A stretch of DNA of 64,000 nucleotides from Deltaproteobacteria bacterium (GCA_016234925.1 JACRNI010000024.1:6555-70554); one strand, 5' to 3'; shown: positions 4,300 to 42,673, numbered from the stretch's first letter. Made by a program: numbers and translations. Notes: generated from the letters alone by a model not told the origin.

Positions 4300-4767
4300 A
4301 TGAAAACACTAATAAAAGGCATTTTGGTTTTTGCTATTGTTTCATTAGCATTTATTGGGTTTGCAAATGCAGATGAAAAAATAGCAGGTCTTTCAAATGA
4401 AGCGGCGGAAAAAAAGGCTATAGCGCATCAAACTAAAGGCAATGCCTATGATGATGATGGAAAACTTAATGATGCGATAATTGAATACAAGGAATCTTTA
4501 AAATACAGCCCTGATAATGTTGATACGCTTTTTAATCTCGGCACGGCTTATTTAAAGGCAAACAAACCTCAAGAGGCTGCATCAACCTTTGAAAAGGTAG
4601 TTAAGATTGACCCAAATGATTTTGAGGCATACAACCTGCTGGGTATTGCATACAGGGGCTGCGGAAAATATGATGACGCAAAGAAATCATGGGAAAAATC
4701 ACTTGCAATAAATCCCAATCAAGCAAAGGTAAAACAAATGATGAATGATAAGATGTCTCAAAAATAA
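4300..4767 (+). CDS. secreted TPR-repeat protein
   Basis: Signal peptide 'ILVFAIVSLAFIGFANA'. TPR-like repeats ('GNAYDDDGKLNDAIIEYKESLKYSPDN...'). Confidence 0.75.
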   Translation: MKTLIKGILVFAIVSLAFIGFANADEKIAGLSNEAAEKKAIAHQTKGNAYDDDGKLNDAIIEYKESLKYSPDNVDTLFNLGTAYLKANKPQEAASTFEKVVKIDPNDFEAYNLLGIAYRGCGKYDDAKKSWEKSLAINPNQAKVKQMMNDKMSQK

Positions 4768-15841: not shown

Positions 15842-16858
15842 ATGAAATTTATAGATGAAGCAAAAATTTATGTTCATGCCGGCAATGGCGGCAGAGGCTG
15901 TGTCAGTTTCAGGAGGGAGAAGTATGTGCCAAAAGGAGGCCCTGACGGCGGCGACGGCGGAAAAGGGGGAGATGTAACAATAATTGGGGACAGAAGACTC
16001 TCAAGTCTGCTGGATTTTAATTATAAGAGAAATCATATTGCGGAAAGGGGACAGCACGGCAAGGGCAGCAACTGGCACGGCAAGGACGGCAAGTCAATAA
16101 CAATCCATGTTCCTATTGGGACTTTAATAAAAGATGCTGATACAGGCGATGTCATAGAGGACATTACATCCGATGCTCAGGAGATATTGATTGCAAAGGG
16201 CGGAAGAGGGGGAAAAGGAAATGCCCATTTTGTTTCATCAACTTTTCAGGCGCCAAAGTTTGCGCAGCCCGGCGAAGAGGGCGGGGAAAGGCATTTAAAA
16301 CTAGAACTCAAACTCCTTGCAGATGTGGGGATTATCGGCTTTCCAAATGCAGGCAAATCAACGCTAATATCGCATATATCCAAGGCAAAACCAAAGATTG
16401 CAGATTATCCATTCACAACTTTAAAACCGAATCTTGGGGTTGTAAAGGTCGGCGATTATGCAAATTTTGTTATTGCAGATATACCGGGGCTTATTGAAGG
16501 CGCGCATGAAGGCAAAGGGCTTGGCATCAAATTTTTAAAGCATATTGAAAGGACAAGCATCTTCATACATCTGATAGACCTTTCCCCATTTTCAGAACGA
16601 GAGCCAAAAAAAGATTTTGAGATTATAAACAAAGAACTCATTGCATTTAATCCTGATTTGAAGAATAAAAAGCAGGTAATTGCCTTGAATAAGATTGATA
16701 TTCCAGAGGCAAGGGAGAGGCTTTCAAATATCTTGAAATTTTTTAAAACAAAGGGTATAAAAACATTCGCAATATCTGCTGTTACAGGCGAGTGTATTCT
16801 TGAACTTTTAAAATATGTGGCTAAAGTAGTGATAGAGAAAAAATGTCAAAAATCCTGA
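15842..16858 (+). CDS. obg: GTPase Obg/CgtA
   Basis: 'MKFIDEAKIYVHAGNGGRGCVSFRREKYVPKGGPDGGDGGKGG'; G1 'GFPNAGKST'. Confidence 0.95.
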   Translation: MKFIDEAKIYVHAGNGGRGCVSFRREKYVPKGGPDGGDGGKGGDVTIIGDRRLSSLLDFNYKRNHIAERGQHGKGSNWHGKDGKSITIHVPIGTLIKDADTGDVIEDITSDAQEILIAKGGRGGKGNAHFVSSTFQAPKFAQPGEEGGERHLKLELKLLADVGIIGFPNAGKSTLISHISKAKPKIADYPFTTLKPNLGVVKVGDYANFVIADIPGLIEGAHEGKGLGIKFLKHIERTSIFIHLIDLSPFSEREPKKDFEIINKELIAFNPDLKNKKQVIALNKIDIPEARERLSNILKFFKTKGIKTFAISAVTGECILELLKYVAKVVIEKKCQKS

Positions 16859-17550
16859 TAATCATTCCAGCGTTTAATGAAGAGGCGACCATAGGCAGTG
16901 TTATACCTTCTGTTAAAAAAGAAATGCCTGATGCTGATATAGTTGTTGTAAATGACGGTTCACATGACAAGACCTCTCAAATCGCCAAAACACTTGGCGC
17001 AGTCGTTATAGACCTTCCTTACAATCTTGGCATAGGCGCTGCAATGCAGGCAGGCTATAGGTTTGCTAAGTCAATGGGTTATGATATTGCTGTTCAGGTA
17101 GATGCAGATGGCCAGCATCCTGCTAACCAGATTAAAAATCTTATTAAACCGATTGAAGATAATAAGGCTGATGTTATTATTGGCTCAAGATTTCTTGGCA
17201 AGGGTGAATATAAACCGAGTTTAGCAAGATTGGTTGGAATGACTGTATTTGCAAAGGTGGTATCCTTTATAATAAAAAATAAGGTAACAGACACAACATC
17301 AGGCTTTAGGGCAGTTAATAAAAAGGTTGTTAATTTTTTCAGCAGCATCTATCCTGATGACTATCCCGAAGTTGAGGCTTTGGTATTGCTTTACAAGGCT
17401 GGATTCAGTATAATGGATACGGCTGTGATTATGGATGAAAGGCATGGCGGCAAATCATCCATAACGCCTATAAGAGGATTATATTACATGGTAAAGGTAT
17501 TGCTCGCTGTATTTGTTGATACTTTAAAAAGGATTGAAAGGGAAGCATGA
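16843..17550 (+). CDS. GT2 polyprenyl-phosphate sugar synthase (GtrB/DPM1-like)
   Basis: 'ILIIIPAFNEEATIGSVI...VVNDGSHDKT'; DxD-containing GT-A fold; 235 aa. Confidence 0.8.
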   Translation: MSKILIIIPAFNEEATIGSVIPSVKKEMPDADIVVVNDGSHDKTSQIAKTLGAVVIDLPYNLGIGAAMQAGYRFAKSMGYDIAVQVDADGQHPANQIKNLIKPIEDNKADVIIGSRFLGKGEYKPSLARLVGMTVFAKVVSFIIKNKVTDTTSGFRAVNKKVVNFFSSIYPDDYPEVEALVLLYKAGFSIMDTAVIMDERHGGKSSITPIRGLYYMVKVLLAVFVDTLKRIEREA

Positions 17551-17888
17551 CAATACAAATACTTGCAATAATAGTCAGCGTAGTGTTATTCTTGGTTATC
17601 ATAGACCTTATCCGCAGAGGCAGGCTTAAAGAAAGATATTCCATTGTCTGGCTTGCGGCATCTGCTGTTATATTTTTATTGTCAATTTGGAGAGGACTTT
17701 TGGAAGGCATATCATTATGGCTCGGTGTTTTTTATCCGCCTTCCTTTTTGTTTCTTATTGCCTTTTTCTTTTTATTGTTGATTGTTTTGCATTTTTCTGT
17801 TGTATTGTCCCGCATATACAATGAAAATAAAAGACTTGCTCAAGAGATCGGTTTATTAAGGACAGAGGTAAAAGAGTTAAAAAAATAA
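17547..17888 (+). CDS. small membrane protein, DUF2304-like partner of GtrB-type GT2
   Basis: Three TM helices, 'LIRRGRLKERYSIVWL'; start overlaps the GT2 stop. Confidence 0.55.
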   Translation: MTIQILAIIVSVVLFLVIIDLIRRGRLKERYSIVWLAASAVIFLLSIWRGLLEGISLWLGVFYPPSFLFLIAFFFLLLIVLHFSVVLSRIYNENKRLAQEIGLLRTEVKELKK

Positions 17889-17905
17889 TTTAATGAGATG
17901 ATAAT

Positions 17906-18004
17906 GATTACACCGATTATAAAGGCAGATTACACGGATTAAAACAAATAGTAGTCTTAAATCTGCGTAATCGTATTTTAGAAATCTGTGTAATCAATTT
18001 CTTT
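17906..18004 (+). repeat. family G repeat, copy 2
   Basis: Near-identical to 56247..56336. Confidence 0.55.
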
Positions 18005-18019
18005 CATAGGAGGCGTTAC

Positions 18020-19204
18020 ATGACAAAAAAACATCTAATTGCTGCAGTTATTATGATTGCAGCCGCATTTGCAGTTTATTCAAATACATTTTATGCCTCG
18101 TTTCACTTTGATGACATCCCTAACATAGTTGAAAATCCAAAGATAAAAAATGTTAATAACATTCCTGAAATGGTGACAGCAGGCTCAAGGGGAATAACAA
18201 TGGCAACATTTGCATTAAATTATTATTTTGGCGGTTTAAATGTAATCGGTTATCATATTGTAAACATTACAATACATGCCATAAACGGGATACTTGTGTA
18301 TTTCATCCTTTATATGACATTTAATCTGCCGTCACTCCGAGAGACCTTTGGTGATAAGTCATACAGACTTGCCTTGTATGCCTCGCTTTTATTTTTAGTC
18401 CACCCTATACAAACGCAGGCTGTAACATACATAGTTCAGAGATTGGAAATCCTTGCGTCGCTATTTTATCTCCTAGCATTGTTTCTATTTATAAAAGGTT
18501 CTATAGCAGAAGGCGTATTAAAAAAGACGATGTTTTTTAGCGCCGTTGTCTTATCATACATACTTGGTATATTCTCAAAGGAGATTGCAGTAACCCTTCC
18601 TGCTGTAATACTTCTCTATGATTATTATTTTATTGCTGATAAGGATTTAAAGGGGGTTTTAAAAAGGCTCCCTGTCTATGCAATATTGTTTGTTATAACA
18701 ATGGCATTTTCATTTAAGGTGCTTGCAAGCCTTGGCGGTTTTGGCGACTTGAGCGAGCAGTCTGCTGGTTTTGGCGTAAAGACAATATCTCCAAAAGAAT
18801 ATCTCTTTACGCAGTTCAATGTAATATGGACATATATAAGACTCCTGTTCCTGCCGATAAACCAGAACCTTGATTACGATTACCCGATTGCAAAAACGCT
18901 TTTTGAATTTCCAACTATTCTGTCATTTATTGGCATAATTGCCCTTATCGCGACTGCTATTGTATTTCACAGTTCAAAAATTAAGGTTTATGGCGCAAGG
19001 CTCATCTCATTTTTTATCCTCTGGTTTTTCATCATACTTTTGCCGACATCGTCTTTTATCCCGATACTTGATGTAATATTTGAACACAGGATTTATCTTG
19101 CCTCTGTTGGTTTTGCGGCAATATTTGCAGTTGTATTTGACAGGGTCTTTGAAATCATAGAGGCAAAATTGTCAAAATCAAAACCTGCAGAACAAAAGGG
19201 TTAA
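18020..19204 (+). CDS. GT-C family (TMTC/PMT-like) polytopic membrane glycosyltransferase domain protein
   Basis: Paralog of the N-termini of 21081 and 23029 ('FHFDDIPNIVENP', 'LVHPIQTQAVTYI', 'NQNLDYDYP'). Lacks the TPR tail. Confidence 0.6.
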   Translation: MTKKHLIAAVIMIAAAFAVYSNTFYASFHFDDIPNIVENPKIKNVNNIPEMVTAGSRGITMATFALNYYFGGLNVIGYHIVNITIHAINGILVYFILYMTFNLPSLRETFGDKSYRLALYASLLFLVHPIQTQAVTYIVQRLEILASLFYLLALFLFIKGSIAEGVLKKTMFFSAVVLSYILGIFSKEIAVTLPAVILLYDYYFIADKDLKGVLKRLPVYAILFVITMAFSFKVLASLGGFGDLSEQSAGFGVKTISPKEYLFTQFNVIWTYIRLLFLPINQNLDYDYPIAKTLFEFPTILSFIGIIALIATAIVFHSSKIKVYGARLISFFILWFFIILLPTSSFIPILDVIFEHRIYLASVGFAAIFAVVFDRVFEIIEAKLSKSKPAEQKG

Positions 19205-19217
19205 TGGGGCATGGGCA

Positions 19218-19859
19218 ATGGGTTATAGGTTTTCTTTATTACCTATTGCCTATTGCCTTTTTTTTATTCTCTTCTTTTTATCCATTCTGACATATTCAAG
19301 AAATCTTATCTGGACAGACCAGTTTACCCTTTGGTCAGATACTCAAAAAAAATCTCCGAACAAAGCAAGACCTTATAATGATATTGGGAATGTCTATCTG
19401 CTTCAGAATAAGTTCGGCGAGGCAATGGAGATGTATCAAAAGGCGATTTCATTAATGCCTGATTTTTATGAGGCGCATTATAATCTTGGCATAATATATT
19501 CAAGATACGGCATGTGGAGCGGCGCAATAAAAGAATTCAGGAATGCGCTTGACAGCGGCGGTGGCGGAGAATATAGAATCCATTATAGATTGGGCGATGC
19601 CTTTGCTGGAAAAGGGATGTTTGAAGACGCAATAAAGGAATATAGTAATGCACTGATGTTAAGACCTGACGATGCAGATGTTTACTATGGTCTTGCCCGT
19701 GTGTATTCATTAAAAATGGAAAAAGATATTGCTATAGATTATCTTGCAAAGGCAATAAAAAATGGGTTTCAAGATTATGAAATTATGTCAACAGATAAAG
19801 GATTAGATAATATAAGAAATGATAAAAGGTATAAGGCTATTGCTGCTGGAAAAAGGTGA
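19218..19859 (+). CDS. TPR-repeat protein with N-terminal TM helix (possible detached C-terminal half of 18020)
   Basis: 'SPNKARPYNDIGNVY' linker motif shared with the TMTC-like fusions. Different frame from 18020. Confidence 0.55.
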   Translation: MGYRFSLLPIAYCLFFILFFLSILTYSRNLIWTDQFTLWSDTQKKSPNKARPYNDIGNVYLLQNKFGEAMEMYQKAISLMPDFYEAHYNLGIIYSRYGMWSGAIKEFRNALDSGGGGEYRIHYRLGDAFAGKGMFEDAIKEYSNALMLRPDDADVYYGLARVYSLKMEKDIAIDYLAKAIKNGFQDYEIMSTDKGLDNIRNDKRYKAIAAGKR

Positions 19860-20084
19860 TGGTGTCTTTTAAAAGATTTAATCTATGGTCAGGGTGTTTT
19901 GTATTTCTTATAACATCCATTACTATCTTTCTTACTGTCAGGGCTTCGGATGAGGACAGGTGGAGCGACTGGGCTTTTGGTGATGCCTAGACCCTAGTGG
20001 GGAGAGGGGTATATAAATTTTTCTCTTGTATTTGTATTAATGACCTGTTAAATAAAGGGAAGATTTTAAATATTTTAGAAGGGG

Positions 20085-20914
20085 ATGTTAGCCATGTTGA
20101 AAAAAAGTTTTGTCAATATCCTGCTTTTTTCATTCCTGCTTGTGGGTCCTGCCTTTACAGAAGCCCAAACTTGTGCCATTGATTACAACAAGCCCACCAT
20201 AGCCGCAGGGTTCCACCACACCGCGGGGCTCAAGGAAGATGGAATGTGGTGGCAGTGGGATATAATTGCTGTGGCGAAATGGATGTTTCGGATTGGACCA
20301 ATATAAAGGCAATAGCATCTGGATGGTACCACACAGTCGGGCTCAAGGAAGATGGGACTGTGGTGGTAGGGGGTTATTTTACTGAAAAGGTCTCGGATTG
20401 GACCAATATAAAGGCAATAGCAGCTGGATGGACGCACATCGTTGGGCTCAAGGAGGATGGAACTGTGGTGGCAGTGGGATATAACCGGGATGGTCAACTG
20501 GATGTCTCAGGTTGGACAAATATCAAGGCAATTGCTGCTGGAGTGTACCACACCTTGGGGCTCAAGGAGGACGGAACTGTGGTGGCAGTGGGATATAATT
20601 ATTTTGGCCAACTGAATGTCTTGGACTGGACCAATATAAGACAACCGAGTTGCATAATAGAATATACCGCGCTTCCAGAATTTATAAGTACACTACCAGG
20701 CATATCCCCGCAAGTTCTTACCAGCCTTGTATCAAAGGCTAAAAGTGCCATAGCATCATTTGAAAACTGGAATACCGGGGCTGCGATAAATAAGTTAAAT
20801 GCCCTGCTTAATGAGATTACTGCTCAGTCCGGGAAGAAGATAGATGCTGATACAGCAGCTACGCTGACAAAATATGTTCAAAACCTTATAATCTATATTC
20901 AGAGTAATAAATAA
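20085..20914 (+). pseudogene. secreted RCC1-like beta-propeller repeat protein, frameshifted
   Basis: Signal peptide; repeats 'GLKEDGTVVAVGYN...WTNIKAIAAG'. A 1-nt deletion ('ggaatgtgg' versus 'ggaactgtgg' in later repeats) splits it into ORFs 20085..20306 and 20246..20914. Confidence 0.6.
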
Positions 20915-21080
20915 GGCAATCCCCTGCCCCCACCTTTGTCCTCCACCACAAAGGGGGAGGACAAAGGTGGGGAGTATTAAAGTAAGAGAAGGTGAGGTTG
21001 ATGGGGTTTTTCGGGGCAAACAAATCCTATTTTTATACATCCATTGCCTTTCTAAAAACTTTTTGCTATATTAAAAAAAG

Positions 21081-23036
21081 GTGGATGCTTTCAAAGATAC
21101 AAAACCTCTTTTTTATACAATCCTTATTATTATAATCCTTTCTATTTTAGGTTTCTTTGCCTATTCAAATATACTCCATGCCCCATTTGTATTTGATGAT
21201 GACCATTATATTGTAAACAATCCAGAAATAAGAGACCTCTCAAATTTCAAAGACACATACGGCACAAGGTATGTTGGTTTTTTAAGTTTTGCAATAAACT
21301 ATTATTTTAATGGGCTGAATACATTTGGTTACCACCTTGTAAATATTGTAATCCATATCTTAAATGCAATACTTGTATATGTTTTGGTGCAAATTACATT
21401 ACAAAGGGTTCAAGGGTTCAAGGGTTCGAGGGTTCAAGAAAATACTAGACCCCTAGACTCCTTGACCCCTAGAATCCTTCCTTTTGCTGTTTCTCTAATA
21501 TTCCTTGTCCATCCTATACAGACTCAGGCAGTTTCATACATAACGCAGAGGTTTGCATCTCTTGCAGCGTTTTTTTATCTTCTGGCAATTGTGTTGTATG
21601 TAAAGGCAAGGGTTCTAGGGTTCGGGGGTTCAAGGGTTCAAGAAAACACTAGACCCCCAGACCCCTTGACCCCTGGAACCCTTTATGTTTTTTCTATTCT
21701 TTCCGCCATCCTTGCCATGAAAACAAAGGAGATCAGTTTTACCCTGCCGATTATAATCATCCTCTATGAGTTTACATTTTTTAGCGCTAAAGACTCACGG
21801 ACATGGACACGGTTTTTATATCTCGCTCCATTTCTTTTAACACTTGCAATCATTCCTTTAAACCTTTTCTTTTATTCAGGCAAAGGTATTGCGCAACATT
21901 TGAGCGAGCAGCAGGTTGTGGATATAAATAGAAATTCACCTGCATATGACCATTTTATTACGCAGTTTAAGGTAACAGTTACATACATAAGGCTATTATT
22001 TTTACCTGTAAACCAAAATTATGATTATGACTATCCTATGTCCCATTCTGTATTTGAAGTTCAAGCCCTTTTATCATTTCTCTTTTTGCTCTCAATAGTT
22101 ATCGCTGCAATTTATCTATATATACGGTCATGGAAGAGAGATAATGGCTACGGTCTTTTAATTTCCTTTGGCATATTGTGGTTTTTCATAACCTTATCAG
22201 TAGAAGCCCGCATAAGAAATGATATAATCTTTGAACACAGGGTATATCTGCCGAGCGCAGGATTTACATTGTCTTTTATAACATCTATCTTTTACGGTTT
22301 TGAATACCTTGAAAGAAGATTAAAGAGGTCTTTGTTTGCATACCTTTTAATATTCATTTTAACCGCAAGCATTTTTCTTTTATTTGCTGCAATAAAGAGA
22401 AATATGGTTTGGAAAAGCGAAGAGGGTATTTATTTAGATACAGTAAACAAATCTCCAAATAAGGCAAGGCCGCATAATTATCTTGCTGGCTTTTATGAAA
22501 AAACAGGCCGTATTGATGAGGCAATAAAAGAGGTTAACATTGCATTGTCTCTGCCTTCCAGCCTTCACTACTTTCATCATTATAATCTCGGTATCGGGTA
22601 CCAGAAAAAGGGTCTTTTAAATGATGCTGTTGATGAATTTTTGTCAGCCATAAAACTTAAAGTTGATTATTTGGATGCATACCGCAGCCTTGGTATAATA
22701 TTTGTTGAATTGGGCAGATTTGAAGATGCTGAGAAAAATATTAAAAAGGCTTTAGAATTGCAGCCAACATCTAATGTGTTGCATAACACCCTCGGCAATA
22801 TCTATCTTATGCAGGGTAAATATAGAGAATCTATAGTTGAATATGAAAAGGCTTTTAGCCTTGATAAGAATAATGTTGAGGCAATATACAATATTGCAAT
22901 GGCATATGAGAATATTGGCAGTAAAGATAAGTCCATAGAATTCTATAAGAAATTTATTGAAATGTCTCATCCTGATTATGAGAATGAGAAAGAACGCGCT
23001 AAAACACGGATAAAGGAATTAACTAAAAATGATTGA
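21081..23036 (+). CDS. TMTC-like GT-C glycosyltransferase fused to TPR repeats (GTG start)
   Basis: N-terminal polytopic domain with 'FVFDDDHYIVNNP'; C-terminal TPRs; two in-frame repeat-derived segments 'GFKGSRVQENTRPLDSLTPRI' and 'GFGGSRVQENTRPPDPLTPG'. Confidence 0.65.
   Translation: MDAFKDTKPLFYTILIIIILSILGFFAYSNILHAPFVFDDDHYIVNNPEIRDLSNFKDTYGTRYVGFLSFAINYYFNGLNTFGYHLVNIVIHILNAILVYVLVQITLQRVQGFKGSRVQENTRPLDSLTPRILPFAVSLIFLVHPIQTQAVSYITQRFASLAAFFYLLAIVLYVKARVLGFGGSRVQENTRPPDPLTPGTLYVFSILSAILAMKTKEISFTLPIIIILYEFTFFSAKDSRTWTRFLYLAPFLLTLAIIPLNLFFYSGKGIAQHLSEQQVVDINRNSPAYDHFITQFKVTVTYIRLLFLPVNQNYDYDYPMSHSVFEVQALLSFLFLLSIVIAAIYLYIRSWKRDNGYGLLISFGILWFFITLSVEARIRNDIIFEHRVYLPSAGFTLSFITSIFYGFEYLERRLKRSLFAYLLIFILTASIFLLFAAIKRNMVWKSEEGIYLDTVNKSPNKARPHNYLAGFYEKTGRIDEAIKEVNIALSLPSSLHYFHHYNLGIGYQKKGLLNDAVDEFLSAIKLKVDYLDAYRSLGIIFVELGRFEDAEKNIKKALELQPTSNVLHNTLGNIYLMQGKYRESIVEYEKAFSLDKNNVEAIYNIAMAYENIGSKDKSIEFYKKFIEMSHPDYENEKERAKTRIKELTKND
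21406..21477 (+). repeat. family C element (tandem GGGTTCAAG units + 'actagaccc...cttgaccc'), inserted in-frame in a CDS
   Basis: Repeated at 21610..21681, 23348..23419, 23552..23623 and 35426..35484. Confidence 0.65.
21610..21681 (+). repeat. family C element, in-frame in CDS
   Basis: See 21406..21477. Confidence 0.65.
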
Positions 23037-25101
23037 AAAAGAGAAAACATCCATAAGAACCTTTATTATTATAGCAGTGATTTTTATTTTAGGGTTTCTT
23101 ATTTATTCAAACACCCTTTACAACCCATTTATATTCGATGACGAAATCTATATTGTTGATAATTATCAAATAAGAGACATTTTAAATTTTACTGATTTTT
23201 CTGGTACACGATATATTGGTTTGTTAAGTTTTGCTATAAATTATTATTTTGGCGGATTAAATACATTTGGCTACCATCTTGTAAATATTGTAATTCATAT
23301 AATAAATGCAATACTTGTCTATTTTTTGGTGCAAATTACATTACAAAGGGTTCAAGGGTTCGAGGGTTCGAGGGTTCAAGAAAATACTAGACCACTAGAC
23401 TCCTTGACCCCTAGAATCCTTCCTTTTGCTGTTTCTCTAATCTTCCTCGTTCATCCTATACAGACTCAGGCAGTTTCATACATAACCCAGAGATTTACAT
23501 CTCTTGCAACGCTTTTTTATATTCTGGCAATTGTGCTGTATGTAAAGGCAAGGGTTCTAGGGTTCGGGGGTTCAAGGGTTCAAGAAAACACTAGACCCCC
23601 AGACCCCTTGACCCATGGAACCCTTTATGTTTTTTCCATTCTTTCCACCATCCTCGCAATGAAGACAAAGGAGATAAGTTTTACACTGCCTTTTATAATT
23701 GTTCTTTATGAGTTTACATTTTTTAATAATTTGGACTCACGACCCACGATCCGCAATTCACAACTCAAAACACGGCTTTTGTATCTAACCCCATACCTTT
23801 TAACACTTATGATTATTCCATGGGAACTTTTTTTGGCAGGCGAAGGTTTTGAGCAATGGTTAAGACAGCAGCAATTGGCAGATATAAGCAATTTGTCAAA
23901 GCATGATTATCTTCTTACCCAGTTTGGTGTGATAGTTACATATATAAGATTGCTTTTTCTGCCAATCAATCAAAATTTTGATTACGATTACCACATAGCC
24001 CATTCTATATTTGAGGTTTCGACTCTTTTATCATTTCTCTTTTTAATTTCAATATTTTCTTTTGCAATTTATCTATATGTATGGTCACGAAAGACAGGTA
24101 ACAGTTACGGTCTTTTAGCCTCCTTTGGCATGCTTTGGTTTTTTATAACCTTATCAGTAGAATCTTCTATAATACCAATAAGGGATGTTATCTTTGAACA
24201 CAGGGTATATCTGCCAAGCATCGGGGCAATTATTGCATTCAATACAGGTTTATTTTATGGACTTGAAAATGTGAAAACAAGATTGTCTATAAAATCATCT
24301 GTAATAATTGCGTTATTTTTATCTATAATTTCTGCTTTTACCATTATATTTTCTATTGCAACTTACAAGAGAAACTTTATATGGGGAGATTTGATGACTA
24401 TGGCATTGGATATGTTAAAAAAATCTCCGAATAAGGCAGATGTGAGAAATGAAGTAGGTATGCACTATTTTAAAAAAGGTCTTCTAGATAAAGCAAAGAG
24501 CGAGATTCAAAAGGCAATTAGCCTTCAGCCCGATTTTTTTATGGCATATAATAACCTTGGTTTAATATATCTAAAAAAAGGACTATTAGAAGACGCGGAA
24601 AGGTTTTTTAAAAAGGCAATTGAGATAAAGCCTGATTATTCTGCGGCACATGAAAATCTTGGCACTGTACTTTTGGAAAATGGCCTGATTGATGAGGCGC
24701 TAAAAGAGTATGAGATTGCAATTATGATGAAGGAGTCTCCCAGATTATATAATAAAATAGGGGTGCTTTATTTAAAACTAGGTAATAGAGATACTGCTAT
24801 AAAGGCGTTCAAAGAGGCGATAAGACTTGAGCCGCAAGGTGTAACTCCATATGCCAACATGGGTTTTGCGTATTTTGATAAAGGTGATTATGACAAGGCA
24901 ATGGAGATGCATGGAAAGGCAATAAAAATAATGCCGAATTTTGCAAATGCGCATTATGGTTTGGCAGAAGTTTATGAGAAAAAAGGGGTGAGAGATAAGG
25001 CAGTAGAGCATTACAAGAAATATATAAAATATGCAGACCCCAAGGAACAGTTTGTTGAAAAGGCAAAGAAGAAGATTACCGAACTGGGGAAAACTGAGTG
25101 A
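23029..25101 (+). CDS. TMTC-like GT-C glycosyltransferase fused to TPR repeats (tandem paralog)
   Basis: Same architecture and the same two in-frame repeat insertions as 21081..23036. Confidence 0.65.
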   Translation: MIEKEKTSIRTFIIIAVIFILGFLIYSNTLYNPFIFDDEIYIVDNYQIRDILNFTDFSGTRYIGLLSFAINYYFGGLNTFGYHLVNIVIHIINAILVYFLVQITLQRVQGFEGSRVQENTRPLDSLTPRILPFAVSLIFLVHPIQTQAVSYITQRFTSLATLFYILAIVLYVKARVLGFGGSRVQENTRPPDPLTHGTLYVFSILSTILAMKTKEISFTLPFIIVLYEFTFFNNLDSRPTIRNSQLKTRLLYLTPYLLTLMIIPWELFLAGEGFEQWLRQQQLADISNLSKHDYLLTQFGVIVTYIRLLFLPINQNFDYDYHIAHSIFEVSTLLSFLFLISIFSFAIYLYVWSRKTGNSYGLLASFGMLWFFITLSVESSIIPIRDVIFEHRVYLPSIGAIIAFNTGLFYGLENVKTRLSIKSSVIIALFLSIISAFTIIFSIATYKRNFIWGDLMTMALDMLKKSPNKADVRNEVGMHYFKKGLLDKAKSEIQKAISLQPDFFMAYNNLGLIYLKKGLLEDAERFFKKAIEIKPDYSAAHENLGTVLLENGLIDEALKEYEIAIMMKESPRLYNKIGVLYLKLGNRDTAIKAFKEAIRLEPQGVTPYANMGFAYFDKGDYDKAMEMHGKAIKIMPNFANAHYGLAEVYEKKGVRDKAVEHYKKYIKYADPKEQFVEKAKKKITELGKTE
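23348..23419 (+). repeat. family C element, in-frame in CDS
   Basis: See 21406..21477. Confidence 0.65.
23552..23623 (+). repeat. family C element, in-frame in CDS
   Basis: See 21406..21477. Confidence 0.65.
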
Positions 25102-25697
25102 TAAACAAGTCTTCATTTGTAATATATTACTTAATCATTCTTTTATTATCTGTATCCGCTTTTTTGAGAAATTCTATCTGGCATAGTGAGATGGGTTTAT
25201 GGCAGGATGTTATATCAAAATCTCCCAATAACGCATTAGCATTAAATAATCTTTGTGTGTCCCTTTATAAAGAAACAAGATATGATGATGCCTTGAATAC
25301 TTGTTTAAAATCACTTAGACTTGAGCCAGAGGATTGGTCAGTGCATTTAAACCTCTGGCAGGTTTATAAGGCAAAGGGCATGTTGAATGAGGCTCAAGAA
25401 GAATCAAAATTGGGGTTAAAACTTCAAATCGGCAAGCCAGAGGCATACAGCACATTAGGTTATTATCTGATGGAAAAAGGATTGATTGATGAGGCAATCA
25501 GGATATTTAAAATAGCATTAGAGAAAAAGCCCGACCTCGCAGACAGCCATTATGGGCTTGCTGTTAATCTTGAAAAAAAAGGTGATAAACATTCTGCGCT
25601 GATGCGCTATAAAGAATATTTGAGATTTTTAAATCCGGAAGACCCCAGATTTAAAGAGGTTGAAAAAAGGGTTAAAGATATAGAAAAAGGCGAATGA
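25098..25697 (+). CDS. TPR-repeat protein with N-terminal TM anchor
   Basis: 'SPNNALALNNLCVSLY'; TPR repeats. Confidence 0.6.
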   Translation: MINKSSFVIYYLIILLLSVSAFLRNSIWHSEMGLWQDVISKSPNNALALNNLCVSLYKETRYDDALNTCLKSLRLEPEDWSVHLNLWQVYKAKGMLNEAQEESKLGLKLQIGKPEAYSTLGYYLMEKGLIDEAIRIFKIALEKKPDLADSHYGLAVNLEKKGDKHSALMRYKEYLRFLNPEDPRFKEVEKRVKDIEKGE

Positions 25698-25882
25698 CCC
25701 AAAAATAGACATTGATTTTTGGGGAAACCTGCAAGTTGGCTGCCAGACGAGGCAGCGGACAATTTTTGAGACGAGCCGTATGCTCACCGATACGGTGAGG
25801 AACAAAAATTGGTCGATAACGAAGTATGGCAGCCAAATCGCAGGTTTGTAAAATAGCGAGGTTTTTAATCGCTATTTTACAA
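25698..25882 (-). repeat. family A repeat, copy 4 (inverted)
   Basis: Reverse complement of 3831..4014. Confidence 0.6.
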
Positions 25883-25945
25883 AATGACATTTGTCTTGAC
25901 CGTTTCAAAACTGGTGTGATATTTTTAAAACTTTAAAAAGGTATT

Positions 25946-26542
25946 ATGGAATATAATCTTGCGCCGCTGCCAAACTATAGGCAGTGGTTTAAATTTGAAG
26001 AGGCAATTGATTTGTTTTCAAGGCTGTCTATGGCTATGCCTGAAAGACTGCTTTTATCATCAGACGGCTCGCTTACAAGACTTCTTGAATCCGTGTATCT
26101 TTCGCCGATTGAGGTAGAGGTAAAAAATCAAAAGACAGAGCAGATTGATGCTGCCGCTGCTGATTATCTTGGGGTCAGTTCAAATCAGGATGCCGTAATA
26201 AGGGATATATGGCTTACAAAGGGCAGGCAAAGACTTGTTTATGCTAATTCGGTTTTTCCGACCTCTGGATTGGATAAGGGTTTTTTAGAAAAACTTATAA
26301 GAGGATATGAACCACTGGGACACCTCTTGAGAAGTCATAATTTTTTGACACTCAGGGATAACTGGGAGATAGGGATTATACAATGTCCGGATGCGGCATT
26401 GGATTTATCCATTCCTATTGACACACCCCTTTGGGCAAGACGGTACAGGCTGTTGGCGAATCCTTTAACAACAGGGAATGGGATTACTGCGGCAATAATG
26501 GAAATATTTTCTCCAGATGTTTTGCATTACAAAAAATTATAA
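25946..26542 (+). CDS. ubiC: chorismate pyruvate-lyase (UbiC-like)
   Basis: 'LLLSSDGSLTRLLES'; C-terminal 'PLWARRYRLL' resembles E. coli UbiC 'GLWGRRSRL'. Precedes ubiA. Confidence 0.55.
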   Translation: MEYNLAPLPNYRQWFKFEEAIDLFSRLSMAMPERLLLSSDGSLTRLLESVYLSPIEVEVKNQKTEQIDAAAADYLGVSSNQDAVIRDIWLTKGRQRLVYANSVFPTSGLDKGFLEKLIRGYEPLGHLLRSHNFLTLRDNWEIGIIQCPDAALDLSIPIDTPLWARRYRLLANPLTTGNGITAAIMEIFSPDVLHYKKL

Positions 26543-27439
26543 ATGGAAATGAGAGCAATAAGGATGTCCCGAGCAACTTTATTTAATGACAAGATAATTG
26601 CAATAAGTGATTTAATAAGACTAAAAAAGCAGTACGGAACGCTTTTACTCCTTGCGCCGACAATGTGGTCTCTTTTCCTTGCATCAAACGGCGTACCATC
26701 CGTTAAACTTCTTGTCATATTTATATTCGGCACATTTCTTATGCGCAGCGCAGGCTGCGCAATAAATGACATTGCTGACAGAAAATTTGACAGATTTGTT
26801 GAGAGGACAAAATTGCGCCCACTCGCATCAGGCAGAATCGGTTTAAGAGGTGCCATCTTTGTTTTTTCCATGTTTTCACTGCTTGCATTTGTCCTTGTTT
26901 TATTCTTAAATCCTTTTACCATAATGCTTTCATTTGCCGCTATATTTCTTGCGTCTCTTTATCCATTTGTAAAAAGGGTAAGTTATCTGCCGCAGGTATT
27001 TTTAGGCATGGCATTCGGCTGGGGTTCTGTAATGGCATGGTCAGCGGTTAGGAATGAGATAGGCATTCCTGCGGTAACCATATTTTTTGCAAATATATTC
27101 TGGTCAACAGCATATGACACGATTTATGCGCTTATGGATAAGGATGATGATTTAAAGATTGGCGTTAAATCAACAGCGATTTTATTTGGCAAACAGGTTT
27201 ATAATATAACAGCATTGTTTTTTTTATCCGTGTTGATATTGCTTTTTTCACTTGGCTTTATGCTATCGCTTGGCATAGCATATTTTATGTCCATACTTAT
27301 TGCAGCCGTCATATTTTTTTATCAAATAATAATTATTAGAAGGCGCCCTGACAGAGAAACTGCATTCCGCGCCTTTGTTCTTAATGCGGTTGTCGGTCTT
27401 ATAATATTATTCGGGATATTTGCTGATATGCTCATATGA
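26543..27439 (+). CDS. ubiA: 4-hydroxybenzoate polyprenyltransferase (UbiA family)
   Basis: 'AGCAINDIADRKFDRFVERTKLRPLASG' Asp-rich motif; about 8 TM. Confidence 0.85.
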   Translation: MEMRAIRMSRATLFNDKIIAISDLIRLKKQYGTLLLLAPTMWSLFLASNGVPSVKLLVIFIFGTFLMRSAGCAINDIADRKFDRFVERTKLRPLASGRIGLRGAIFVFSMFSLLAFVLVLFLNPFTIMLSFAAIFLASLYPFVKRVSYLPQVFLGMAFGWGSVMAWSAVRNEIGIPAVTIFFANIFWSTAYDTIYALMDKDDDLKIGVKSTAILFGKQVYNITALFFLSVLILLFSLGFMLSLGIAYFMSILIAAVIFFYQIIIIRRRPDRETAFRAFVLNAVVGLIILFGIFADMLI

Positions 27440-28629
27440 CATTTTACAGGGCATTTTTACTGGGCATTTTATTAGGACTTTCATATCTTGCTTTTATGCG
27501 AAACAATATCTGGTTTGATACCTTTTCAATTTGGGACGATACATCCAAAAAGTCTCCAAAAAAGGCAAGGCCTCATAATAATCTCGGCGGCGCATATCAG
27601 ATGAAAGGGCTTAATAGGGAGTCTATAGAGGAATTTAAGATGACCATAAAACTTGAGCCGGGATATTCAGGCGCATACAGTAATCTTGGCGCTGCATATC
27701 TTAATATGGGGCTTTATGACGATTCTCAAAGGGAATTGATGAATGCAATAAATGTAAATCCTGCTGACGCCCGCGCATATACAAATCTCGGGGCATTATT
27801 TCATAGGAGAGGCAAATTGGTGGATGCTGTTGTTGCGTTAAGAAATGCTATAGTGATAAATCCTTATATTGCTGTTGCGCACAATAATCTTGGAAATGTG
27901 TATTTGGCATTAAATCTTTTTGAAGATGCAAAGAGGGAACTCTTTACTGCAATAAGCCTAGACCCAACCCTTGCTATGGCATATGCAAATCTTGGCTCTG
28001 TTTATATGAGGCAGGGCATGATTGACGGCGCAATGAATATGTTCAGGAAAGCAGCGGTATTAGCGCCAAATAATGCAGAGGCGCATGCAAATCTAGGCGG
28101 TATTTATGTTACAAAGGGCATGTTTGACGATGCTGAAAAAGAGTTAAAGAAAGCATTAGATATAAATCCAGATCTTTCAGATGCGCATTATAACATGGGG
28201 GTTGTATATACTAAAAGAGGTATGATAGATGCGGCAATTAGAGAATACAAAACAGCAATCTCTTTAGATCCTAATTTTATTGACAGCCGCATAAATCTTG
28301 GCGCAATATACTATGAAATAAATATGCTTGATGAGGCGGAAGAACAATTTAAGGAGGCAATCAAACTTAATAAGGATTCATTTGAGGCGCACATAAACCT
28401 TGCAAATGTATATGGTAAAAAAGGCGATATGAAAAATGCTGTTAGGGAATTGCAGATTTCCATAAAGTTAAATCCCAATTCATATGATGCGCATTACATA
28501 CTTGGTTTTGCATACGAAAAGACGGGTAATTTTAAAATGGCAAAAAATGAATATGAGACAGCGCTCAAGATAATGCCAGATGCAAGAGATGCGAAAGAGG
28601 CGCTTGCGAAACTTCTATCAAAACGGTAG
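27436..28629 (+). CDS. TPR-repeat protein with N-terminal TM anchor
   Basis: 'SPKKARPHNNLGGAY' followed by about 10 TPRs. Its stop lies inside a REP-like element. Confidence 0.7.
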   Translation: MTFYRAFLLGILLGLSYLAFMRNNIWFDTFSIWDDTSKKSPKKARPHNNLGGAYQMKGLNRESIEEFKMTIKLEPGYSGAYSNLGAAYLNMGLYDDSQRELMNAINVNPADARAYTNLGALFHRRGKLVDAVVALRNAIVINPYIAVAHNNLGNVYLALNLFEDAKRELFTAISLDPTLAMAYANLGSVYMRQGMIDGAMNMFRKAAVLAPNNAEAHANLGGIYVTKGMFDDAEKELKKALDINPDLSDAHYNMGVVYTKRGMIDAAIREYKTAISLDPNFIDSRINLGAIYYEINMLDEAEEQFKEAIKLNKDSFEAHINLANVYGKKGDMKNAVRELQISIKLNPNSYDAHYILGFAYEKTGNFKMAKNEYETALKIMPDARDAKEALAKLLSKR

Positions 28630-28675
28630 CCGCACCCTTTAAGGGTGCGTTACGCAGGCTAAAGCCTGCGGCTAC
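28625..28675. repeat. REP/BIME-like element, family B (ggtagccgc-hairpin-hairpin-gcggctac)
   Basis: Six copies: 28625, 31705, 41041, 42499, 44785, 55773. GTAG...CTAC termini; internal hairpins with TTTA loops. Confidence 0.7.
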
Positions 28676-28692
28676 AAAAAGAAAGGTTTAAA

Positions 28693-30162
28693 ATGATATT
28701 TCACGATTTAAGAGAATTTTTAAGTTTTCTTGAAAAAAAGGGCTTGCTCAAAAGAGTCAAGGCAGAGGTCTCTGCAAATCTTGAGATTGCTGAAGTCATG
28801 GACAGGCTTGTTAAGAAAAACGGGACTGCTGTTATATTTGAAAATGTCCAAGGCTATGATATTCCGGTTGTCGCAAATCTTTTCGGCACAGTTGAGAGGG
28901 TTGCAATGGGGCTGGGCATTACACTGGGCATTACAGAGGATGAACTTGCTGAAATAGGAAAATTCCTTGTCCATCTGCAAAGACCTGAACCGCCGGAAGG
29001 CATATGGGAGGCAATAAAATCAATCCCGTTTTTTGCAAAAATGCTTACGCTCGGCCCAAAGACAATTAGAAATGCGCCGTGTCAGGATGTGGTATTGGAA
29101 GGGGACAAGGTTGATTTGTCAAAATTTCCAATAATAAAATGCTGGCCAGATGATGCAGCGCCTTTAATAACATGGCCTCTAGTTATAACCCAATCGCCTC
29201 AAGGCGGTCCAATAAATGTCGGTGTTTATAGGATGCAGTATATTGATAAGAACCGCGCAATAATGAGATGGCTAAAACACAGGGGCGGAGCGCATCATCA
29301 GATGTTGTGGAAGGAAAAGGCTCAGCCAATGCCTGTTGCGGTTGCAATAGGGTGCGAGCCGGCAACAATCATTGCAGGTGTAACTCCTGTGCCGGAAAAT
29401 ATAAGCGAGTTTCATTTTGCAGGGATACTGCGGAAAAAGGCGATTGAACTTGTTGACTGCAAGACCATACCTCTAAAAGTTCCTGCAAGCGCCGAGATTG
29501 TTCTGGAAGGCATGATTTATCATGATGATTTGGCAGATGAGGGGCCATTTGGCGACCATACAGGTTATTACAATGCAAAGGAAAAATTTCCTGTGTTTCA
29601 TATAAAGTGCATAACGCACAGAAAAGACCCATTGTATCTTACAACAATAACAGGAAGACCTCCAAAAGAGGATGCAGTTATCGGCATTGCATTGAACAAG
29701 ATGTTTCTGCCGAGTCTGCAAATGCAATTCCCTGAGATTAAAGACTTCAACCTTCCGATGGAGGCGGTCTCATACAGGATTGCGGTTGTGTCCATAAAAA
29801 AGCAGTATCCCGGTCATGCAAAAAGGATTATGCTCGGCATATGGGGCATGTTAAAACAGTTTATGTATGTAAAGTATATAATAGTTGTTGATGATGATAT
29901 TGATGTCCATAACTGGAATGATGTAATATGGGCAATCTCAACAAGGGTTGACCCTGAAAGGGATACATGGACTATCAAGGATACGCCGATTGATTATCTT
30001 GATTTTTCCTCGCCTGTTGCTGAACTTGGTTCAAAGATGGGCATAGACGCAACAATGAAAAACCCCCCTGAGGTTTCACGGGAGTGGGGAGAGGTAGTGA
30101 AGATGGATAAGGAAATTATAGATTTGGTTGATAGGAAATGGAAGGAGTATGGGTTAGAATAA
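28693..30162 (+). CDS. ubiD: UbiD-family (de)carboxylase
   Basis: '[22 protein letters not shown]...[13 protein letters not shown]'; 489 aa. Confidence 0.85.
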
Positions 30163-38784: not shown

Positions 38785-39561
38785 TTGGCAGAAATAATTA
38801 CATTTGTGACTGTCTTTGCCTTTGGCGCCTCTATCGGCAGTTTTTTAAATGTCTGCATCTATAGAATACCTGAAGGTAAATCTATAATATCCCCTCCATC
38901 GTCTTGTCCAAACTGCAGCAACCCAATCCGATTCTATGACAATATTCCAATAATAAGTTACCTAATACTTTTTGGCAGATGCAGGAATTGCAAGGCGTCT
39001 ATCAGCATCCAATATCCTATTGTTGAGGCATTGACAGGTTTCTTTGCTGTCCTTATTTTATATTATTTTGGATTTACCATTGATGGTTTAATATATTTTT
39101 TATTTATTGCCAGCCTTATTGTAATCACATTCATTGATTTAAAACTTCAAATCATACCTGATATTATAAGTCTGCCGGGAATAATCGTAGGATTTATATG
39201 CTCATCTTTTTTGCTTCCAACAGGTTTTATAAATTCTCTTTTGGGCATATTTCTTGGCGGCGGCAGTCTTTTTCTTGTTGCATACGGCTATAAAAAAGTT
39301 GCAGGCATAGAAGGCATGGGAGGCGGGGATATAAAACTCATTGCAATGGTCGGCGCATTTTTGGGCTGGAAGGCTGTTATAATGACGATATTTGCAGGCT
39401 CGTTTGTTGGCGCAATAATAGGCACGATTGCAATGCTGATTCAAGGGAAAGATACAAAATATGCAATACCATTCGGGCCGTTTCTGGCATTAGGCGCTGC
39501 GCTTTATCTATTCATTGGACAGGATTTTATCAACTGGTATGTAAGGGTAATGTGGAGATGA
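38785..39561 (+). CDS. pilD: prepilin peptidase (A24 family)
   Basis: 'CPNCSNPIRFYDNIPIISYLILFGRCRNC'; catalytic Asp-containing TM core. Confidence 0.9.
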   Translation: MAEIITFVTVFAFGASIGSFLNVCIYRIPEGKSIISPPSSCPNCSNPIRFYDNIPIISYLILFGRCRNCKASISIQYPIVEALTGFFAVLILYYFGFTIDGLIYFLFIASLIVITFIDLKLQIIPDIISLPGIIVGFICSSFLLPTGFINSLLGIFLGGGSLFLVAYGYKKVAGIEGMGGGDIKLIAMVGAFLGWKAVIMTIFAGSFVGAIIGTIAMLIQGKDTKYAIPFGPFLALGAALYLFIGQDFINWYVRVMWR

Positions 39562-41057: not shown

Positions 41058-41097
41058 GTTACGTTGTGAATATCGCAGGCTAAAGCCTGCGGCTACC
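41041..41097. repeat. REP/BIME-like element, family B
   Basis: Supplies the stop codon of the kinase gene. Confidence 0.7.
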
Positions 41098-41107
41098 CGT
41101 AAATCTT

Positions 41108-42466: not shown

Positions 42467-42498
42467 AGACAGGGGGCAAGGGTCAAGGGGTCAAAAAG

Positions 42499-42556: not shown

Positions 42557-42673
42557 ATGGATATCAAAAAACTATTGTCGTTCAGTATAACTATTTTGAA
42601 TAACTATTTTTAATTGACAAAAAATAATAGTCATACTATAGTATAACCATTATCATACTGGAGGTAATAGGCA

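Follow-up and report, generated by a model that had tools for sequence, protein, structure and literature searches.

Described systems with related components

Two systems in which a GT2 synthase is paired with a DUF2304 protein have been characterised: GacI/GacJ/GacL, responsible for the GlcNAc side chain of the group A carbohydrate, and PpgS/Rv3632/Rv3779, responsible for the GalN on mycobacterial arabinogalactan. The products of these GT2-DUF2304 pairs are GlcNAc-P- or GalNAc-P-prenol, and in both systems polysaccharides are decorated, not proteins. GacI has a lower Km for Und-P when bound by GacJ, a protein of 113 aa, and PpgS is stimulated by Rv3632. Fusions of GacI and DUF2304 were already noted by Rush et al. 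in Geobacter, Desulfuromonas and Desulfurivibrio.

Proteins are the acceptors of eukaryotic TMTC1-4 (CAZy GT105), O-mannosyltransferases acting on cadherins, whose full-length prokaryotic homologues were noted, though not studied, in 2021 (PMC7801869). Further precedents are TfpW of Pseudomonas aeruginosa, a pilin O-arabinofuranosyltransferase in which an 11-TM GT-C and a periplasmic TPR domain are combined, and the streptococcal GtrB/PgtC2 and PgfS/PgfM1, which glycosylate Ser/Thr-rich regions.

A polyprenyl-P-sugar synthase together with a GT-C enzyme acting outside the cytoplasm is a feature that the locus described here is predicted to share with the Gtr-type (GtrA/GtrB/Gtr*), GT136 pentofuranose, streptococcal GtrB/PgtC2 and PgfS/PgfM1, and actinobacterial Ppm1/Pmt systems. 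Those systems differ from it in their GT-C families (YfhO, GT136, GT39), in their longer, GtrB-type synthases with TM helices of their own, where GT2 and DUF2304 are found here, and in the dedicated flippase gene, which is usual there and absent from the present cluster.

Organisation of the locus

The window, that is, the whole stretch of 64,000 nucleotides that was analysed, comes from a MAG contig, which we count as a caveat on the interpretation favoured below. An ORF check of the window placed all the ORFs named in a preliminary description of this DNA on the + strand, and both the ORFs and the motifs quoted for them lie where that description had located them. It had treated the span 16843-28629 as one system; eight genes can be retained as its parts, and three others within the span are unrelated (Table 1).

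Table 1. Genes of the cluster and unrelated genes within the same span
Feature	Coordinates	Strand	Properties
GT2	16843..17550	+	235 aa; PF00535 (E 1.6e-26); predicted polyprenyl-phosphate monosaccharide synthase, GacI/PpgS type
DUF2304 small membrane protein	17547..17888	+	113 aa; PF10066 (E 2.8e-26); predicted GacJ/Rv3632-like activating partner of GT2
GTCa	18020..19204	+	394 aa; TMTC-like GT-C, membrane domain only, about 10 TM, no TPR
TPRa	19218..19859	+	one TM helix, junction motif and TPR array; TPR Pfam matches
GTCb	21081..23036	+	651 aa; TMTC-like, 11-TM GT-C domain and periplasmic TPR array (predicted)
GTCc	23029..25101	+	690 aa; TMTC-like, 11 TM and about 7 TPR
TPRb	25098..25697	+	stand-alone TM11-junction-TPR module; TPR Pfam matches
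TPRc	27436..28629	+	397 aa, about 10 TPR; stand-alone TM11-junction-TPR module; TPR Pfam matches
RCC1-repeat ORF or fragment	20246-20914		unrelated gene inside span
Chorismate lyase	25946-26542		unrelated gene inside span
UbiA	26543-27439		unrelated gene inside span

The GT2 stop and the DUF2304 start overlap by 4 nt, which suggests translational coupling of the two genes. Overlaps of 8 nt and 4 nt connect GTCb with GTCc and GTCc with TPRb, respectively, and a gap of 13 nt separates GTCa from TPRa. Among the eleven large + strand ORFs of 16843-28629 (the eight parts, the RCC1-repeat ORF, chorismate lyase and UbiA), no flippase of the GtrA/SMR, Wzx or MATE type was detected by Pfam and/or NCBIfam, so that the cluster differs from the Gac system in having no Wzx-like counterpart of GacK.

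The synthase pair

By its matches, GT2 is of the polyprenyl-phosphate-sugar synthase class, as had been proposed. Apart from PF00535, its best NCBIfam match is PpgS, followed by Dol-P-hexose transferase and AglJ, and its best solved relatives are the Dol-P-Man synthase DPMS (5mlz, 49.7 bits), GtrB (5ekp, 36.9 bits) and ArnC. The PpgS score of 113 bits lies far under the 370-bit cut-off; GT2 is thus not an equivalog of PpgS, and the sugar is not assignable from it. GT2 lacks the C-terminal TM helices that GtrB has and is followed by a DUF2304 membrane protein of about 110 aa, an arrangement of the GacI/GacJ and PpgS/Rv3632 type, in which a short GT2 without TM helices stands beside an activating DUF2304 protein of roughly 113 aa. 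Orthologues of GT2 (198-318 bits) are found upstream of a GT-C gene in 22 loci, in which the adjoining DUF2304 gene is kept and no conserved flippase-like neighbour was observed.

TMTC-like membrane proteins

The motifs FxFDD...N, LVHPIQTQAV and NQNxDYDY were found in all three membrane proteins, and they correspond to invariant or nearly invariant columns in the alignment of a 121-member family. The FDD follows TM1 directly in each protein, as an acidic motif of the first extracytoplasmic loop, and aligns to the DD of TMTC4. In the 121-member alignment each of the two Asp residues (D37 and D38 in GTCc) shows a conservation of 90 % or more, and the first (D31 of GTCa) is invariant in an alignment of 23 TM-only members. 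GTCb and GTCc are tandem paralogues with 59 % identity, and GTCc matches exactly a protein of the MAG 'Deltaproteobacteria bacterium' that is annotated only as a TPR protein.

The membrane domains have the polytopic fold of the GT-C superfamily, and ArnT, which modifies lipid A, is among the best structural matches; the AF2 model of GTCc has a pLDDT of 91.6 and a pTM of 0.90. Wzy_C gave no Pfam match and an O-antigen-ligase or PglL-type fold was not found, which removes an objection foreseen in the preliminary description, namely that these domains might be O-antigen ligases. Solved GT-C structures were not reached by sequence search, even with a profile. With phmmer, homology to the TMTC4 membrane domain was detected over the N-terminal 11-TM domain at 34-59 bits (up to 59 bits for GTCb). 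The family HMM scored 92-124 bits on TMTC4 membrane domains vs. at most 4.5 bits on controls (shuffled or reversed TMTC4 and unrelated membrane proteins), and in an hhalign comparison with the TMTC4 membrane domain the family gave 99.8 % (E 4.5e-29) over 420 columns, i.e., the whole membrane domain. Judged from these comparisons, the kinship of the three bacterial proteins with the human protein O-mannosyltransferases of the TMTC type is genuine; they also resemble TMTC1-4 in the presence of several paralogues per genome.

The kinship does not extend to every TMTC feature. DUF1736 (PF08409), the TMTC signature of the TM7-TM8 loop, had been suggested as a profile to search with; it gave no match in the three window proteins at E up to 10 and was found in none of the 23 TM-only members. 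The Pfam lists precomputed for 120 homologues do not include it either, whereas it is present in all TMTC4 proteins. Using the motif set M1-M7 of Eisenhaber et al. 2021, we determined that M1 (DD), M4 (KExxxT) and M7 (E..R..Y) align to invariant family columns and that the Asp of M5 is kept, with Trp replaced by Tyr. Unlike in TMTC1-4, only the Arg (and a downstream Asn) of M2 and only the Arg of M3 are retained, the M3 Asp and M6 (PxxP) not being conserved and the H-K of M2 being absent.

The sole annotation as 'tetratricopeptide repeat protein' and the lack of a Pfam catalytic domain match would suit non-catalytic paralogues, that is, TPR proteins serving as scaffolds or chaperones, with a degenerate GT-C-like domain as their membrane anchor. 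We regard this as highly improbable, as the catalytic DD, KE...T, D-Y and E-H-R-x-Y are invariant or nearly so in the 121 members and all three window proteins, and a donor-synthase cassette is conserved beside the GT-C.

The relationship to TMTC and the Dol-P-Man synthase as best solved relative of GT2 are both in line with the pathway originally envisaged, in which an Und-P-Man synthase and TMTC-like mannosyltransferases would O-mannosylate a giant pilin (44856) and a PilX-like protein (50223). The existence of these pilin-like proteins was confirmed, with Ser+Thr making up 21-24 % of their residues, and TfpW, to which the window proteins can be likened by description, is a precedent for a pilin glycosylated by a GT-C+TPR enzyme. 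Mannose is nevertheless disfavoured, because HexNAc-P-prenol is the product of the DUF2304-partnered synthases characterised so far and the H-K lost from M2 was modelled as the mannose contact. The choice of pilins fares no better: their genes lie 15-25 kb off, with ubi, leu and regulatory genes in between, and of the 82 related loci only 3 have a prepilin-like ORF no more than 10 kb from the GT-C gene, whereas tfpW is located directly downstream of pilA. O-mannosylation of the pilins therefore seems very unlikely.

A conserved GT2-DUF2304-GTCa cassette

Of the 29 loci of the TM-only clade, 20 have GT2-DUF2304 immediately upstream of the GT-C gene in the same orientation, vs. 2 of 63 loci of the TPR-fused clade, to which GTCb belongs (Fisher p 2e-11). 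The order GT2-DUF2304-GT-C recurs in Nitrospirota and Thermodesulfobacteriota, and only with the clade of GTCa. As this synteny is conserved across phyla, gene order supports the view that GT2-DUF2304 and a GT-C work together. The coupling proposed for the GT-C/TPR proteins in general, and the co-occurrence across genomes that was to be checked, thus apply to the GTCa type and not to the TPR-fused type. TPR-fused relatives are almost never linked to GT2-DUF2304 elsewhere, so it is only proximity in the window that points to a sharing of the donor by GTCb and GTCc. The cassette itself, as well as the possible split enzyme considered further below, is an addition of the present analysis.

The clade of GTCa is almost entirely membrane-only, and 18020 is therefore not a broken fusion; the initial view of 18020 and 19218 as an enzyme separated from its TPR half was rejected on this ground. 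Such a clade without TPR, encoded beside its own donor synthase, has no parallel in TMTC1-4. GTCa is also unlike GacL and Rv3779, the GT-C enzymes of the characterised systems, in being TMTC-like, and is predicted to resemble them in using a prenol-P-sugar outside the cytoplasm.

The same donor pathway might serve a glycan or glycolipid acceptor (LPS, capsule or another envelope polysaccharide side chain), as in GacIJL, PpgS/Rv3632/Rv3779 and Gtr, with the TPR arrays docking to polysaccharide export or assembly machinery and not to substrate proteins. Besides the polysaccharides modified by both characterised GT2-DUF2304 systems, this would fit the DUF2062, GT2, GT4 and GT2 genes that flank the Nitrospirota cassette, the independent GT2-DUF2304 pairs that lie within MBOAT/AlgX/Wzx-like/epimerase polysaccharide clusters in two loci (L083, L084), the absence of TPR from the cassette-linked GT-C and the structural match to ArnT. 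We consider a glycan acceptor a serious rival to a protein acceptor, possible although on balance doubtful. For the periplasmic protein O-glycosylation of the preliminary description, TMTC and TfpW offer plausible analogues; a protein acceptor is suggested by this analogy and is not a finding, and the characterised GT2-DUF2304 systems decorate polysaccharides.

Proposed pathway

We favour, as reasonably probable, an extracytoplasmic glycosylation from a lipid-linked donor, of the 'three-component' type and arranged around bacterial TMTC homologues, with envelope proteins as the probable acceptors. The gene content, the enzyme classes, the GT-C fold, the TMTC homology and the conserved GT2-DUF2304-GTCa cassette are established by the analyses described here; for the lipid carrier, the sugar, its flipping, the acceptor and the use of one donor by GTCb and GTCc, we infer the following route. 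At the cytoplasmic face, GT2 and DUF2304 would act as a GacI/GacJ-type pair and load undecaprenyl phosphate, in place of the dolichyl-P of the TMTC pathway, with one sugar residue taken from a nucleotide sugar; analogy makes a HexNAc more likely than mannose. The lipid-linked sugar would then cross the membrane via a putative flippase, and the absence of a flippase gene from the cluster counts against the proposal. In the periplasm, the GT-C enzymes would pass the sugar to acceptors; transfer would depend on the invariant DD that lies in the first periplasmic loop, together with the motifs KE...T, D-Y and E-H-R-x-Y. GTCa would be dedicated to this donor and evolutionarily conserved in that role; for GTCb, GTCc and the stand-alone TM11-TPR modules, acceptors would most likely be chosen by the periplasmic TPR arrays. 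Modification would probably take place on Ser/Thr of envelope proteins, as with TMTC1-4 and TfpW.

TPR arrays and stand-alone TPR modules

In GTCb and GTCc the TPR array is joined after TM11. GTCa ends after about TM10 and itself has no TPR domain, an observation that we counted against the pathway favoured above. The membrane-to-TPR junction, R[NS]xxWx[SD]ExxL[FW]...P.[NK]A, occurs in vertebrate TMTC4 as well, and the 11-TM model together with TMTC/GT-C family topology would place the C-terminal arrays on the non-cytoplasmic side, as in TMTC1-4.

TM11 and the junction 'RNxxW...SPxKA' are common to the fused enzymes and the stand-alone TPR proteins TPRa, TPRb and TPRc. As read from the translations, the junction is 'SRNLIWTDQFTLWSDTQKKSPNKA' in TPRa and 'RNNIWFDTFSIWDDTSKKSPKKA' in TPRc; in TPRb the motif 'RNSIWHSEMGLWQDVISKSPNNA' begins at residue 24. 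Three further TM-anchored TPR proteins had been listed, of which those at 25098 and 27436 are of this kind, and the third (4300-4767) is a signal-peptide TPR protein without TM11 and the junction.

In the fused enzymes, TM11 and the TPR half appear to be the equivalent of TPRa, which is a candidate partner of GTCa in trans. TPRa-like modules adjoin GTCa orthologues in Desulfobacterales-type loci, not in Nitrospirota. Taken further, there could be a split TMTC-like enzyme in which GTCa, as catalytic core, pairs in the membrane with interchangeable TM11-TPR adaptors (TPRa, TPRb, TPRc and relatives) for a combinatorial choice of protein substrates and is supplied by its own GacI/GacJ-type Und-P-HexNAc synthase. 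Widespread in Thermodesulfobacteriota, Nitrospirota and other phyla, it would be the prokaryotic counterpart of the eukaryotic TMTC pathway. We view this as unlikely; if true, it would amount to a widespread uncharacterised system of periplasmic protein O-glycosylation and a possible source of the eukaryotic pathway.

TPRc, which homology suggests as a member of the system, is encoded between ubiA and ubiD, its start overlapping the ubiA stop by 4 nt. At the closest related locus (L005), ubiD directly follows ubiA, with no TPR gene between them.

Gene organization of the cluster

All genes of the cluster region, from obg to UbiD, run on one strand (Table), and the GT2, DUF2304, TPR and ubi assignments are backed by Pfam and NCBIfam. 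GTCc is an exact match to a protein encoded by a MAG contig of 72.7 kb, 'Deltaproteobacteria bacterium', where its sole annotation is as a TPR protein. Scanning for promoters and terminators returned counts no better than chance.

Table. Features of the cluster region in the window
Feature	Position (nt)	Description	Family support
obg	15842-16858	5′ of GT2; overlaps GT2 start	
GT2	16843-17550	235 aa, family-2 glycosyltransferase	Pfam, NCBIfam
DUF2304	17547-17888	113-aa membrane protein; shares 4 nt with GT2	Pfam, NCBIfam
GTCa	18020-19204	polytopic membrane protein, 394 aa	
TPRa	19218-19859	one TM helix, TPR repeats	
RCC1 ORF	20246-20914	RCC1 repeats	
GTCb	21081-23036	membrane domain and TPR	
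GTCc	23029-25101	membrane domain and TPR	
TPRb	25098-25697	one TM helix, TPR repeats	
ubi genes (chorismate lyase, UbiA)	25946-27439		
TPRc	27436-28629	one TM helix, TPR repeats	
UbiD	28693-30162	decarboxylase, ubiquinone type	

The motifs quoted in the preliminary description were found in all three TMTC-like membrane proteins (GTCa, GTCb and GTCc). When 121 family members are aligned, these positions (FDD, HPIQTQ, QR, KE...T, NQN.DYDY and EHRxYLP) are invariant or nearly so. The gene content described there is thus confirmed, with one exception: the protein encoded at 4300-4767, earlier grouped with TPRb and TPRc, has a signal peptide and TPR repeats and lacks the junction motif of the stand-alone modules, and so is not of the same kind.

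Several other features were also observed. The RCC1 region (19862-20914) sits amid the GT-C genes; its ORF has a GTG start and a FIMAH-like tail, and is probably a truncated gene remnant, as the repeat units continue 5′ of the GTG across two in-frame stop codons. Within 25946-30162, TPRc breaks up a ubiquinone-type operon (chorismate lyase-UbiA-UbiD), its start overlapping the ubiA stop by 4 nt; at the closest related locus (L005) ubiD directly follows ubiA, and at L001/L002 a UbiA-family gene lies ~2 kb from two TPR-fused GT-Cs. A 762-aa ORF at 9638-11926 had no Pfam matches at E up to 1e-4.

Membrane domains are related to TMTC proteins

The membrane domains of GTCa, GTCb and GTCc were unrecognised in Pfam, NCBIfam and PDB sequence searches. 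Full-length queries were unsuited here, because TPR matches drown out the membrane domain. A profile of 23 natural members of the family consisting of the membrane domain alone gave zero PDB matches at E up to 10. Two of these 23 showed a weak match to PMT_2, and none matched DUF1736 in Pfam, the search suggested initially. Fold search, by contrast, identified a GT-C fold and ruled out that of an O-antigen ligase; ArnT is among the best structural matches of the membrane domain, and ALG12, PIG-U, STT3B, PglB and others come lower in the ranking.

For direct comparison, a human TMTC4 N-terminus was used as bait only, and the TMTC4 proteins fetched with it, all carrying PF08409, were compared locally. 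Single window proteins scored 34-59 bits against TMTC4 membrane domains in phmmer and the family HMM 92-124 bits, while alignment of the family with the TMTC4 membrane domain by hhalign reached 99.8 % probability (E 4.5e-29, 420 columns). Controls (shuffled or reversed TMTC4, unrelated polytopic proteins of the window) gave ≤4.5 bits. Judged by sequence, these scores place the window membrane domains far closer to TMTC than to any solved GT-C; no experimental TMTC structure was met in the PDB searches.

Of the TMTC motifs catalogued by Eisenhaber et al. (PMC7801869), the bacterial family keeps M1 (DD), M4 (KExxxT), M7 (E/R/Y) and the Asp of M5; from M2 and M3 it retains just the Arg residues. 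The H-K of M2, modelled as a mannose contact (PMC7801869), and the PxxP of M6 are not conserved. The junction between TM11 and the TPR array, R[NS]xxWx[SD]ExxL[FW]...P.[NK]A, is common to the bacterial family and vertebrate TMTC4, suggesting homology of the GT-C+TPR fusion in the two groups and not convergence. In the GTCc model, ~7 TPRs come after 11 TM helices; under standard GT-C topology the TPR array would then be periplasmic, on the side of the DD loop. This topology is based on AF2 helices and GT-C/TMTC precedent, crude hydropathy having given nothing usable.

GTCa belongs to a conserved three-gene cassette

A synteny scan with one genome per species yielded 79 loci from Nitrospirota, Thermodesulfobacteriota, Omnitrophota, Bacteroidota, Planctomycetota and others. 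At 22 of them, close orthologues of GT2 (198-318 bits) and DUF2304 lie just 5′ of the GT-C gene, with GT2 on the strand of the GT-C in 20 and divergent in two (L028, L050). Clades were taken from a neighbour-joining tree without bootstrap. The clade of GTCa comprises ~400-aa proteins made of the membrane domain alone and ending after ~TM10; a fused TPR array occurs in 2 of its 31 other members (L016, L021). Nearly all members of the clade of GTCb and GTCc are TPR-fused; these two proteins are 59 % identical and are recent tandem duplicates.

Linkage to the cassette was seen for 20/29 in the GTCa clade vs. 2/63 in the TPR-fused clade (Fisher p 2e-11). GT2-DUF2304-GTCa is therefore conserved as a unit of three genes, and the membrane-only form of GTCa is its native state; it is not a broken fusion split from its TPR half as had been proposed. 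A frameshift or pseudogene origin of the 18020/19218 split was rejected as well: orthologues in 29 other genomes also stop after ~TM10.

Stand-alone TM11-junction-TPR modules of the TPRa/b/c type adjoin GTCa orthologues in a Desulfobacterales-type subclade, so membrane core and TPR modules could possibly pair in trans; in the Nitrospirota subclade such modules are not clustered beside GTCa orthologues. Tandem arrays are frequent among the TPR-fused paralogues, with up to six genes (L076, L077). Both loci are striking local family expansions: a Bacteroidales MAG has six TPR-fused TMTC-like genes (L076, 7032-19935), and an Omnitrophota MAG has five full-length ones together with a fragment where the contig ends (L077, 1419-11806).

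No conserved acceptor or flippase candidate was found around the 22 cassette loci. Subsets of them have extra GT2/GT4 genes, a ThiL-like gene, DUF2062 or a radical-SAM gene as neighbours. In Nitrospirota (L012, L017, L018), a ThiL-like AIR-synthase-family gene, DUF2062 and a membrane GT2 precede the cassette, and GT4 and GT2 follow it; this larger glycosylation cluster is conserved there and missing from the window.

GT2 and DUF2304 form a putative donor module

The best NCBIfam matches of GT2 are all polyprenyl-phosphate glycosyltransferases (PpgS with 113 bits, a haloarchaeal Dol-P-hexose transferase and AglJ), all scoring under the equivalog cut-offs of these models. Its nearest solved relatives are the Pyrococcus Dol-P-Man synthase (5mlz), GtrB (5ekp) and ArnC. 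Unlike GtrB, GT2 is short and without C-terminal TM helices, being coupled to the DUF2304 protein instead. The same architecture is found in GacI/GacJ: GacJ, a 113-aa DUF2304 protein complexed with the short GT2 GacI, lowers the GacI Km for Und-P from 18.7 to 1.1 uM (Rush et al., bioRxiv 10.1101/180810). In the same work, the mycobacterial homologue Rv3632 boosts PpgS, the products GlcNAc-P-Und and GalNAc-P-prenol are consumed by GT-C enzymes outside the cytoplasm, and GacI-DUF2304 fusions are pointed out in Geobacter, Desulfuromonas and Desulfurivibrio (bioRxiv 10.1101/180810). The designation of GT2 as GtrB/DPM1-like thus holds at class level, with GacI/GacJ as the closest functional model. 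The proposed mannose donor is not supported: the product of the two DUF2304-partnered synthases that have been characterised is HexNAc-P-prenol and not Man-P-prenol.

A GT2-based metagenome scan (reverse synteny) gave six loci. Two of them carry GT2-DUF2304, in both cases within a polysaccharide cluster that has no TMTC-like GT-C, which marks the pair as a general module that also occurs outside this system.

Nature of the acceptor

The best-supported reading, which we hold with moderate confidence, is extracytoplasmic glycosylation from a lipid-linked donor with protein as the acceptor. GT2/DUF2304 would make an Und-P-monosaccharide, a flippase would export it, and the TMTC-like GT-C enzymes would transfer the sugar in the periplasm. 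Protein is favoured because the nearest characterised homologues are protein O-mannosyltransferases, because pilin is O-glycosylated by TfpW, a bacterial GT-C that likewise has 11 TM helices and TPRs in the periplasm, and because streptococcal GtrB-type synthases and GT-C enzymes glycosylate Ser/Thr-rich regions. Transfer to a glycan is, in our estimate, less likely but a serious rival; it would agree with the decoration of polysaccharides by both characterised GT2-DUF2304 systems, with the glycosyltransferase genes surrounding the Nitrospirota cassette and with GTCa having no TPR domain.

As for protein acceptors, nearby pilins had been named as possible substrates. The type IV pilus cluster (38785-51518) is real, encoding a prepilin peptidase (PilD), a PilS/PilR-like two-component pair, a FimT/GspH-like minor pilin, a PilX_N protein and a protein of 1486 aa that has poly-Thr stretches and, at its N-terminus, a methylation motif; the pilin-like proteins are Ser/Thr-rich. 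The pilin-substrate idea is nevertheless weak, because these genes lie 15-25 kb from the cluster and just 3/82 related loci have a prepilin-like ORF close to the GT-C. A PIN-domain gene is inserted in the pilus cluster at 49416.

Relation to known systems

TMTC enzymes constitute a separate animal protein O-mannosylation pathway, recognised only in 2017-2021. The general logic is already known from Gtr systems, GacIJL, PpgS/Rv3779, streptococcal PgtC2/Pgf and actinobacterial Ppm1/Pmt. Full-length prokaryotic TMTC homologues, one from Deltaproteobacteria, were remarked on in 2021 and left uncharacterised (PMC7801869); our literature search on bacterial TMTC-like function found nothing beyond that remark and no functional study. 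GT105, the CAZy family of TMTC, is also mentioned in papers on the CAZyme content of bacteria and gut microbiomes. TMTC relatives abound in bacteria, labelled merely 'TPR proteins': phmmer with the TPR-less GTCa matched 61,472 cluster representatives with an E cut-off of 1e-3 and 8,497 with one of 1e-30.

The conserved GT2-DUF2304-TMTC-like cassette, the recognition of the TM-only clade as its partner and the stand-alone TM11-TPR modules appear to be new. The cassette gives bacterial TMTC relatives a predicted donor pathway and, with only three genes, is compact enough for direct tests of the sugar, the class of acceptor and what the TPR modules do. Should proteins be the acceptors, environmental Gram-negative phyla would have a large protein-glycosylation system that has gone unrecognised; if glycans, the three-component glycan-decoration model would extend to a new GT-C family.

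A repeat element within GTCb and GTCc

An imperfect palindrome of ~76 nt occurs four times (21404-21479, 21608-21683, 23346-23421 and 23550-23625), confined to GTCb and GTCc with two matching sites per gene. It is composed of AAGGGTTC octamer repeats, a loop and a complementary arm, and its RNA fold has an energy of -37.2 kcal/mol (z -4.3). Translated in frame, it reads 'GF.GSRVQENTRP.D.LTP', located in low-confidence loops; this peptide is limited to the four closest homologues (P0001-P0004). This pattern suggests a small repeat element that inserted in frame within one lineage.
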